64,000 nucleotides of DNA from Hormiphora californensis. Taxonomy: Eukaryota; Animalia; Ctenophora. The translations under genes and the position numbers were made by a program. Positions 23,501-51,935 of the stretch are shown here, one piece after another. The notes beneath the pieces were generated by a model that did no database searches, was not told where the DNA came from, and was given only the letters and a program-made list of their open reading frames with translations. Numbering within the stretch: position 1 is the first letter of the stretch; each line of letters starts with the position of its first letter. The DNA is taken from the NCBI GenBank assembly GCA_020137815.1, contig CM035355.1, positions 5,022,001-5,086,000 of the forward strand. The letters are read 5' to 3'.

Positions 23501-26500
23501 TAGGTAAGCTTACCTAAGATCTGTCCACGTTGTAATTCCTCTTCCGTCGCGATAATTAATTGGCCATCGTTAATTGGGTAATTAGTGTCCTCCTGGAAGA
23601 CAGGTTCATAGATGGGGTTGATATTATCGTGCATGTGCTGAGCATGTTTTAGCAGGTCACGTCTCTTTTTCCGCATCTGAGTCTGCCTCTTTTTCCTGTG
23701 GGAGATAAATCAAAATGAATGATTCCCTAATCATAATGCTAAGAATTTAACCATGGTAACCACGGTATTGTGACCATGGTAACCACTATACATCACACTT
23801 ACCATACGACGATCATGACAAAAACGACGACAATAACGAGAGCAGCTGCTATCAGGAAATAATTCAGAGGATCAGCCTGATCTGGTATAGACCTGTAGGG
23901 TGAGAAATTGTGTTATTAGTTATTTAGTGGACTCAGGATTCATCAATTAATTAATAAATAAATAAATTAATTAATTAACTGATTAACTGATGCACTTACG
24001 CTGATCGACCGGGTATTGGTTCGCAGCTCTCCTTCTCTCTGTAAATATCTCCATTTGCCCGGACCTCCTCACAGGACATGACACACTTCACATACTCCTT
24101 ACCACCACTCTTTCCAATAATCTGGGAGGGAGGAATGATGTTCATACTATATTTTACACATGATTAACTACTAAATTAATTGATTAATTGCCTAACTAAC
24201 TGCTCTATCAATGAATTAATTATTCACATAACCAATTAATTAATTAATTACCTGGTGTGTGTAATCCCGGGGGCACTCATCAACGCAACTTCGTGTCTGT
24301 GAGGTGACCTGTTCTTCCTCGTCCACGCCAGTAGGAAATATCTCGTATTTGTTGCACAGTGTACAGTTACCTTCACCCCCACCTGTATCAGATGTGTAGG
24401 GTAAAATGTGAGTGAAACGGTTGATCTAATGCATTAGATTCGTGAGATAAACCCCAAATAATCCTAGAAAATCATTAAATTATCCTACGTACCAAGACAT
24501 GTTCTGCAGTTGGGATGGCACGGCTGGCAGTTTTTATCAGGATCTGCATAGAAACCATCGTCACACACAGCTTTACACTCTTTTCCCTGCCTCACATTGG
24601 CACACTGATCACAGTTGAAACTCGACTGGGGGGATAGGGAAGATGGTGTCAGAAAATTTGAAAACACAATAATATGTTTGGCCTTGGATGATATGTGACA
24701 CCCTTTCTGTGATGTGGGCCCCATGTGATATGTGATCTCTCTCTTACCGAATGGGAGCATCTTGTACATTCCTCGTGACATGGCAGACACTCCTCAACAT
24801 ACATCTGCTTCCCCTCCCTATTCTTCTGCTTTGTCGTGATCATGTAACTCCGGGTTGGGCAAGAGAAGGTACACACATTTGTCCTGTTTCCAACTCCACT
24901 CGTCCGATCATGGATCTTACAAAAGTTGCACCCATTCTGGCCGAGATTATTCCCTGGGCCTGTGCAGCCCTTCTCACAGGATTTATCGCATGGCGTACAC
25001 TCCTGAGTGAGAGGGTCCTCGAATGTAGAGGATGGGTTTGTGCACTCCTGCACGCACGCTCCCTCGTCTATAACGTATTTACAGGCGATACAGTGCTGGT
25101 TTCCTGGGCCCGTGCATGTCTGACAGTTCTCGTGGCAGGCCTTGCAGAGCTTCGAACCGTCATCGTAGGATGCCCTGGAAGAGAGAGGGAGGGTATGGAT
25201 GGGGTACTTGAGAGATAGGGTAGAGATGGGAGGTTAAGATATGGCATGGCTAGAGAAATAGGAGTCGCAATGTTTTATGGTAGGGGGTAGAATTAAATAT
25301 TGTCATATTTATGTAAGAAAGCAGAGGAGGTCTACTATCAGAGCGGAGAATAATTATAGAACTAGCCACTAGGTATAATGGATTTTGGATGGATTACTGA
25401 AGGAATTTGGAGTGACAGATTATCTGGTTGAAGAATAAATTTGAGGAAATTCCCAGATTTTGGTGTCAGACAGGCTAAAATGGTCCTGACGTCTGACACG
25501 TTAAACGCCTGTCAGGACATGGTGGTGGAGAGAGAGAAATAGAATCCTATTAACCAGTTAATTAATAAGTTAATTAATTACCCTTCACATGTGGGAACAC
25601 ATCGTGTCTGAAACTCCTTGTTCCTACACTTGTCACACATATCGTCCCCGGGTCCGAGACAGCCCCGCTCCCCTGCACACTCCACATGACACACTCCGCA
25701 ATCTGAACCTCCCGCAACTACCTCAACCTACAGAGAAGATGATATGATAATTTCAAATGATATCGGGGGAAACTCATCCTCCTAGTAAATCAGGGTTCCG
25801 GTAAATCGGGGCCGATAAATTGGGGTCGGACTGTACCTGGCCTGGGCCGATTCTTTCATCCCAATTAACGGTATCTGCATAGCACAGGTTATCTCCTGCT
25901 ATCTTTACCCTCCCATCTACATCCTCCAGTCCTATCAGTTCTGATGTTGCCAGGGCTGTATTGTTGGAGATATCAACGGCGTAACCGTTAGACGTTGTGT
26001 CTGGGAGAGGGGAGGGGGTTAAGTTGTGTCTGAAAGGGAGGGGGAAGTTGGGTATCAAACTAATTCTTATTGCAGGAGTGATGATCTTTACCAAAAAAGG
26101 CAACTATCGTGTTCCTATAAAAAGTGATCATATTACGGGTGGGGCTCCGTTTCATGTTCATTACGGAGAGAGAATGAATTGAGGGTGGGTGATTAGAGGG
26201 GAATGTTTTGATAAGCCCTCCCACTGTAATTTAGAGGAGTTAAATTTCACAAACTGGGAAGAACAAAATAAGATGTCCTGGGAGGGGATTTGCAAAAATC
26301 ACAAACCCATCCACTGAGGAATATCAAAAAACCATTCTAAATGATACTCAATCTATTTTCGAATCTAGTACCTCGTTTTTGTCGAGTGTTGCCCATGTTG
26401 ACTGATTTAAGGCGTTTCAACATGCCCAGATTGGTAAAAGTGGGGTCCGGTGAATCTCTGATAACCAATCGGCCCGTGATGGTCTCAATCTCATTCATGG

Positions 26501-51935: not shown

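Follow-up and report, generated by a model that had tools for sequence, protein, structure and literature searches.

The window analysed here, a 64-kb stretch (64,000 nucleotides) of the genome of the ctenophore Hormiphora californensis (contig CM035355.1, positions 5,022,001 to 5,086,000), holds a single EGFR-family kinase receptor gene, which lies on the minus strand at about 51935-11375 and whose features are given below in window positions, all on that strand. The encoded ectodomain has the order L1-CR1-L2-CR2-L3-CR3, where L stands for a receptor L domain and CR for a cysteine-rich region, and three L domains are counted instead of the exactly two of a canonical EGFR/ErbB receptor. When the kinase exon was used as a query, the predicted proteins P0001 (1,827 amino acids, 71% identity) and P0002 from Mnemiopsis leidyi (1,825 amino acids, 70%) came out far ahead of the next matches, which reached at most 50%, and the best-scoring named matches below these two are EGFRs. 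P0001 clusters with 'EGFR-like' proteins of Bolinopsis microptera, and a partial model from Pleurobrachia bachei (P0121) is 94% identical to the window model over 524 columns. By tblastn the window is collinear with P0001 and P0002 from L1 through the C-terminal tail near 11380. An earlier reading of the DNA letters (hereafter the original prediction) had taken the gene for the EGFR of an early-branching animal, and this is supported, the animal being a ctenophore.

Twenty-eight GT-AG exons could be placed from 51935 down to 20970, and those from 35190 to 20970 splice phase-compatibly into 996 stop-free codons; upstream of the transmembrane (TM) exon 1,165 codons are mapped, as counted before. 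Exon 1 (51839-51935) carries the ATG start codon, a hydrophobic N-terminus recognized as a signal peptide and a GT donor, and is followed by the L1 exon (51216-51719; Pfam PF01030, E 3.4e-9; L1-type score 73 versus 32 bits). CR1, or domain II, occupies 38603-50796 in four exons (50796-50728, 45798-45668, 42553-42412 and 38713-38603) that are backed by Pfam, tblastn and phase joins, and the third of these holds the dimerisation arm, which is identified by its motif. The L2 domain (34451-38502; exons 38502-38389, 35190-35112 and 34570-34451) was placed by collinearity with P0001 and P0002, while CR2 (27182-33749) is built from six exons (33749-33619, 33489-33412, 33295-33206, 32313-32167, 28831-28721 and 27359-27182) supported in the same way as CR1, the last of them being similar to the end of domain II. 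L3 follows at 25837-26864 in three exons (26864-26725, 26501-26372 and 26000-25837), supported by Pfam, the orthologues, exon phases, profiles and the predicted fold. CR3, which resembles domains IV and V, spans 24000-25727 in five exons (25727-25582, 25174-24748, 24625-24493, 24382-24252 and 24121-24000) with Pfam GF_recep_IV and Furin-like matches, tblastn support and compatible phases.

The TM exon (23803-23892) contains the sole strongly hydrophobic 19-mer downstream of the signal peptide, and the juxtamembrane exon (23514-23695) encodes a juxtamembrane region 75% identical to that of P0002. The tyrosine kinase (20415-23297; Pfam PF07714) is encoded by four exons (23297-23155, 21361-21245, 21099-20970 and one from 20863, whose 3' end was set by eye), with intact glycine-loop (GxGxx-type) and DFG motifs. 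The C-terminal tail (11375-20244) was traced by tblastn to P0001 and P0002 in exons at about 20244-20091, 13858-13682, 11870-11740 and 11560-11375, with boundaries set by eye. Two small duplications were seen in this part of the gene: the first tail exon has its acceptor and opening codons duplicated in tandem at 20300-20225 of the minus strand, which offers two possible acceptors 37 nucleotides apart in different frames, and in the intron after kinase exon 23297-23155, at 23043-22990 of the minus strand, 54 nucleotides repeat the 3' end of that exon together with its donor at 94% identity.

The receptor shares with Drosophila EGFR and with human EGFR and ErbB2-4 the signal peptide and single TM helix of a type I membrane protein, the L1-CR1-L2-CR2 head with one dimerisation arm, and an EGFR-type kinase with intact catalytic motifs, whose nearest named matches are EGFR/ErbB proteins; the middle of L2 is absent in the window and complete in the orthologues. 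The arm motif occurs once each in the window, P0001 and P0002, and is confined to the first cysteine-rich region, as predicted. The long cysteine-rich stalk is of the invertebrate EGFR type, whereas the ctenophore receptors differ from EGFR/ErbB in having a third, old and diverged L unit, an ectodomain of ~1,250 amino acids and, within an L domain, a furin-type site that is conserved. The description of the ectodomain as double-length holds against human EGFR (~1,245-1,250 amino acids versus 614-627 in the solved human ectodomain chains); against the invertebrate norm it is only ~1.5-fold, since the TM segment of two-L invertebrate receptors lies at 721-913 in 32 of 33 cases.

The region 26864-25837 encodes a complete third L domain that is in phase with the cysteine-rich exons on both sides. 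The phases of its three exons are 1-0, 0-1 and 1-0, the preceding exon 27359-27182 ends in phase 1, the following exon 25727-25582 starts in phase 0, and removal of the three L3 exons alone breaks the reading frame. Together with the last CR2 exon they form a phase 0-0 block (27359-25837), and skipping of all four could produce an in-frame two-L isoform, of which no sign was seen. When single exon frames were scanned with Pfam, L1 gave a Recep_L match, as did the middle exon of L3 at E 0.0027, short of the curated cut-off; the remaining two exon frames of L3 and all those of L2 gave none. The full-length orthologues P0001 and P0002 each give the three expected PF01030 stretches; among eight proteins scanned, three stretches were found in these two and in one nematode protein, and two in the other five. 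Structure prediction also agrees with the assignment. Mnemiopsis L3, modelled by AlphaFold2 together with its first cysteine-rich module, has a mean predicted local distance difference test score (pLDDT) of 90.5, and every one of the 50 structural matches listed is an EGFR/ErbB domain III (best Z 22.6, root-mean-square deviation 1.9 over 171 residues), although the underlying alignment is rich in L2 domains and supports the L fold more firmly than the L2 type. The L3 of P0121 is likewise predicted with confidence to fold as an L domain. Furthermore, L3 is well conserved: between Bolinopsis and Mnemiopsis it is 85% identical, compared to 69% for L1, 75% for L2 and 72% for CR3, and between the window and Mnemiopsis the values are 50%, 34%, 48% (mapped part of L2) and 46%, respectively.

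About 80 middle codons of L2 are absent from the gene model, which leaves a phase gap from 1 to 0 and confirms the missing exon or exons noted before. No such exon was found in 35191-38390 or in the rest of the window, and a sensitive tblastn search gave nothing credible, its best match in the whole window being an L3 exon (E 0.029). The homopolymer load reaches 70-113 per 500 nucleotides in 36001-38000, compared to a window median of 17, and for this reason the absent codons were probably lost in poor sequence there. The segment 46001-47500 is homopolymer-rich to the same degree, and both stretches resemble uncorrected single-read sequence. In Bolinopsis, isoform X1 in the pair P0130 and P0131 has a 12-residue insertion in L2, at an exon boundary that matches window position 35190.

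The continuity of the transcript, for which the original prediction had asked for reads joining 32167 to 28831, is supported in part. A contig of the X1 set, which comes from a relative, bridges 33245 to 28832, and with it this junction, with spliced spacing; most X1 contigs, compared over 19500-35800, are less than 90% alike to the window, and their RNA status is a guess. This contig aligns to pieces from 33711 to 23000, and between 33711 and 28721 it keeps a constant offset to the spliced model. Between 28721 and 23671 it measures 1,662 nucleotides, where the model has 1,686 with L3 and 1,252 without it; the L3 exons themselves have no X1 cover at 80% likeness, and the inclusion of L3 in this transcript is therefore suggested by the spacing, which fits the model with L3. 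The source contig of P0001 (6,663 nucleotides) holds the 1,827-residue frame and has little space for introns. A metagenome scan yielded eight loci, of which only one (L001) is a close relative of L3, the other seven reaching 25-34%. In L001, positions 166-717 carry the second half of L3 and the next cysteine-rich modules in one open frame that lacks several of the window introns.

Sequence comparison points to L3 as a probable old ctenophore duplicate of the L2 unit. An L2 profile built from 41 non-ctenophore receptors gives it 58-63 bits and the corresponding L1 profile 30-35, and the two profiles score L1 and L2 of ctenophores as expected. L3 plus CR3 aligns to L2 plus CR2 of P0001 (28% over 420 columns, E 1.8e-29), in line with the parallel noted before between the cysteine-rich runs after L3 and after L2, and residues 167-483 of P0121 align best to 272-596 of fly EGFR, a stretch that runs from the end of domain II through domains III and IV. 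The flanks agree as well: a phase-1 intron precedes L2 and L3 at equivalent places, and the distance from the last L domain to the TM segment is 317-319 residues in ctenophores and 315-326 in 19 of 33 two-L receptors. In a phylogeny of 71 domains over 135 columns (11 near-duplicate receptors left out, no insulin-receptor outgroup), a 99/94 branch sets every L1 domain apart from L2 together with L3, and L3 is not sister to ctenophore L2. Since self-BLAST of the ectodomains gave no off-diagonal match, the evidence for duplication rests on the alignment, the fly EGFR match, the profiles and the tree, and on these the proposed old internal duplication is supported. L2 and L3 are only 27-29% identical, and the duplication is therefore considered old; we infer that it predates the split of the Pleurobrachia-like and lobate lineages. 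As a sponge receptor (P0082) has two L domains, a gain specific to ctenophores is the simplest history, while a three-L ancestor is formally possible.

Among 43 proteins with at least two L domains, recovered by word-seeded, non-exhaustive searches, 37 have two and six have three, the latter being four ctenophore entries and two isoforms from Plectus sambesii (P0084 and P0134). A wider search added three-L models from Branchiostoma floridae (P0144) and Engystomops pustulosus (P0175). The claim that other EGFRs never add L domains needs qualifying, since these models also carry three L domains in one predicted protein, from copies that are much more recent (86%, 97% and 65% identical in Plectus, Branchiostoma and Engystomops, respectively, in contrast to 27-29% for ctenophore L2 and L3). 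Each of these models appears in the annotation of one species, their L domains lack the furin-type site, and a kinase is present only in those of Plectus; the identity of the copies fits recent duplications or merged gene models. The searches also returned two giant proteins, P0171 (3,177 amino acids) and P0172 (1,910 amino acids), with ~12 and ~7 weak L-domain-like repeats, respectively, and a two-L EGFR-like receptor (P0202) with a kinase that is missing the usual HRD and DFG motifs and may be a pseudokinase.

The conserved furin-type site inside L3 is a new observation, which the original prediction overlooked. In the window the motif reads R-Q-K-R and lies at the end of the middle L3 exon (26373-26384), with a predicted cut after the last arginine. 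The furin consensus is R-x-K/R-R exposed on a loop of a secretory protein, and on this basis a furin-type protease is predicted to cut the L3 site. In Mnemiopsis P0002 such a cut would yield chains of about 855 and 946 residues plus glycan. The motif is present in all seven ctenophore L3 rows that extend beyond the loop, which represent four lineages and include P0001, P0002, P0121 and P0122; in total it occurs in 10 of 167 L domains, that is, in these seven and three others. It is found a single time in the whole ectodomain of the window gene (mapped part), Bolinopsis and Mnemiopsis, and anywhere in the ectodomain in 3 of 36 two-L receptors. The loop around it is 24% identical between the window and Mnemiopsis, as opposed to 50% for L3 as a whole, and it forms the block of lowest pLDDT in both L3 models (61 in Mnemiopsis and 58 in P0121). 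In lobate sequences six or seven basic residues stand in a row at the site, and in the metagenome locus L001 it lies within one open frame without a splice junction. Two of the four L3 cysteines precede the basic site and two follow it, and by the usual cysteine pairing of L domains they would pair within each half, leaving no bridge across the predicted cut. In L2 of P0001 and P0002 the equivalent loop holds a two-cysteine insertion.

According to PMC1618406, Asp355 of human EGFR contacts Arg41 of EGF, the aromatic residue at 357 contacts Tyr13, and Gln384 is also a contact. In 41 other L2 domains the matching columns, for which the human numbering was assigned from the alignment, hold Asp in 24, Tyr, Phe, His or Trp in 36, and Gln in 25. 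The segment with the Asp and aromatic columns is lacking in the three L3 rows that reach it, and all four L3 rows have Arg at the column equivalent to Gln384. At three columns of the sheet that hold Tyr/Phe, Gln and Tyr in other L2 domains, all four rows carry Arg, Arg and an acidic residue. The missing segment and the Arg at the Gln384 column are suggestive of a loss of the usual EGF contacts in L3, and they weaken the idea that L3 offers a second EGF site. The linker from L2 to L3 is also longer (281-283 amino acids compared to 201-203 for L1 to L2) and has no dimerisation arm. Biochemical proof of ligand binding is also called for in PMC4914847.

Taken together, these features suggest a receptor in which an old duplicate of the L2 unit has become a furin-cut, non-covalent joint, so that the mature protein would be a ligand-binding head seated on a membrane-bound kinase chain; the sequences bring this reading to about an even chance. 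L1 and L2 would clamp an EGF-type ligand and the arm would drive dimerisation, as in other EGFRs, while L3 would no longer bind EGF in the usual manner. A convertase of the Golgi would cut the L3 loop, and the two halves, with cysteines pairing within each, would be held together solely by stacking of the solenoid. Release of the head would then be possible, which may create a decoy and alter the activity of the stub. Precedents for such a joint are Notch, whose heterodimerisation domain is cut at S1, and the SEA-domain mucins, in which a folded domain is cut during maturation and the halves stay non-covalently joined and can be separated by pulling, but the folds are unrelated and the analogy is only functional. 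By this analogy L3 could even be a protease-primed breakaway joint, where pulling or shedding of the head would turn on the kinase stub in the manner of EGFRvIII, set free a soluble EGF trap and amount to Notch-like activation; such an extension appears doubtful.

Several observations weigh against the cut joint. The site is known as a motif, which is not equal to a cut; sporadic polybasic loops occur elsewhere (3 of 160 other L domains), and the four ctenophore lineages are related and not independent trials. The L3 exon fragment P0129 closes with T-N-K-R, a dibasic sequence short of the full furin consensus, and the accessible part of PMC6850559 makes no statement on a ctenophore furin. The contact argument is weakened because ctenophore L2 departs from the usual contacts as well, with His at the Gln384 column and a D-x-F that aligns only with a shift. 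Regarding the origin, L3 is not sister to ctenophore L2 in the free tree, and approximately unbiased (AU) tests rejected neither the grouping of L3 with ctenophore L1 (p 0.077) nor that with ctenophore L2 (p 0.155). Even when cut, the solenoid may remain tightly joined and the head may never be released, and the charged, conserved face of L3 points to a role in binding for which the cleavage model has no explanation.

This last point leads to a different function for L3, in which it would offer a second surface that binds some other ligand, a co-receptor or the matrix, with the basic loop forming part of that surface, for example a glycosaminoglycan patch, and not a cut site. The greater conservation of L3 over L1 and L2 between Bolinopsis and Mnemiopsis would fit such a role, as would the Arg/Arg/acid set that is invariant in the four L3 rows and the lobate run of six or seven basic residues, which exceeds the need of furin. 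However, the minimal R-Q-K-R of the window is closer to a cleavage consensus than to a charge patch, the Asp/aromatic motif for EGF is absent in L3, and a clamp of L2 with L3 resembling that of L1 with L2 is unlikely given the longer, armless linker, which makes this a possible but not a favoured explanation. An intramolecular brake, in which L3 folds back on the L1-L2 head or on the arm, is less probable still. Tethering of domain II to domain IV is established for vertebrate EGFR, and both the conserved L3 surface and a linker of 280 residues could permit a similar arrangement here, but no result indicates such a contact and the invariant basic site would stay unexplained; a complex prediction of the L1-CR1-L2 head with L3, in which the alignments went unused, scored 0.00 and carries no weight either way.

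Alternatively, L3 and the extra cysteine-rich modules might form a rigid spacer that raises the L1-L2 head off the membrane, with the site being incidental. The loss of EGF contacts in L3 and the free variation of cysteine-rich copy number among EGFRs (2-5, according to PMC4914847) are compatible with this idea, but a spacer requires neither an L domain nor an invariant basic site, and in both comparisons the conservation of L3 exceeds that of L1 and CR3, which weakens the proposal of a mere spacer and renders it unlikely. Finally, the three-L architecture could be an artefact, in which adjacent genes or a misassembled duplicate are read as one. Part of L2 is missing and the neighbouring sequence is noisy, and the near-identical L domains of other gene models (86% and 97%) show that artefacts of this kind, or recent duplications, do arise. 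Yet the same architecture recurs in two other genera and on single contigs, L2 and L3 are only 27-29% identical, and the gene has one signal peptide, one TM segment and one kinase, so that an artefact is highly improbable.

The insulin and IGF1 receptors combine L domains with furin processing into two chains, which in the insulin receptor stay disulfide-linked after a cut in the insert of the second fibronectin type III (FnIII-2) domain. The ctenophore site lies instead inside an L domain and has no predicted bridge across it, and Pfam found no fibronectin type III domain in P0001 or P0002, unlike the three that follow L2 in the insulin receptor family. The IRLD proteins of Caenorhabditis elegans (described in PMC9262388) likewise use receptor L domains outside a two-L clamp, but they lack a kinase, whereas one is present here. 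In M. leidyi one EGFR is listed by Barberan et al. 2016 (PMC4914847), with a signal peptide, one TM segment, an active kinase and three cysteine-rich domains ('Cys rich 3'), and it is probably the orthologue of the window gene. L domains are not counted in the searched passages, tables or legends of that paper, where the architecture of all EGFRs is called highly similar, and a count of the terms 'receptor L' and 'L domain' in the text of its supplement gives 0 for both. No description of a three-L EGFR or a furin-cut EGFR was found in the literature searched, which left most subscription journals, figures and preprint supplements out of reach, and the three-L ctenophore EGFR has apparently gone unremarked so far; the proteins are already public, and automatic annotation would display their three L domains.

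In EGFR and insulin receptors alike, the clamp of two L domains is regarded as invariable. The conserved three-L receptor of ctenophores shows that a whole further L unit can be built into the head and kept across genera. It also provides a natural test of how a ligand is coupled to the kinase over a stalk of roughly twice the usual length. If the site is cut, the receptor would be a constitutively two-chain EGFR, a mode known in the insulin receptor and Notch and not for EGFR in the literature searched. In addition, the gene has a bearing on the first animal EGFR; ctenophores may be the sister lineage to the rest of the animals.

Outside the receptor exons the window holds several repeats. 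An exact tandem duplication of 873 nucleotides at 55911-57654, possibly an assembly duplicate, includes a 304-amino-acid frame, which we take to resemble the endonuclease of a long interspersed nuclear element (LINE). Long inverted repeats with arms 93-99% identical lie at 415-1675, 12341-13658, 14622-15263 and 21493-22891, three of the four within introns of the gene, and are likely fold-back elements or elements of the miniature inverted-repeat transposable element (MITE) type; among them, 12394-12960 resembles 21540-22097.

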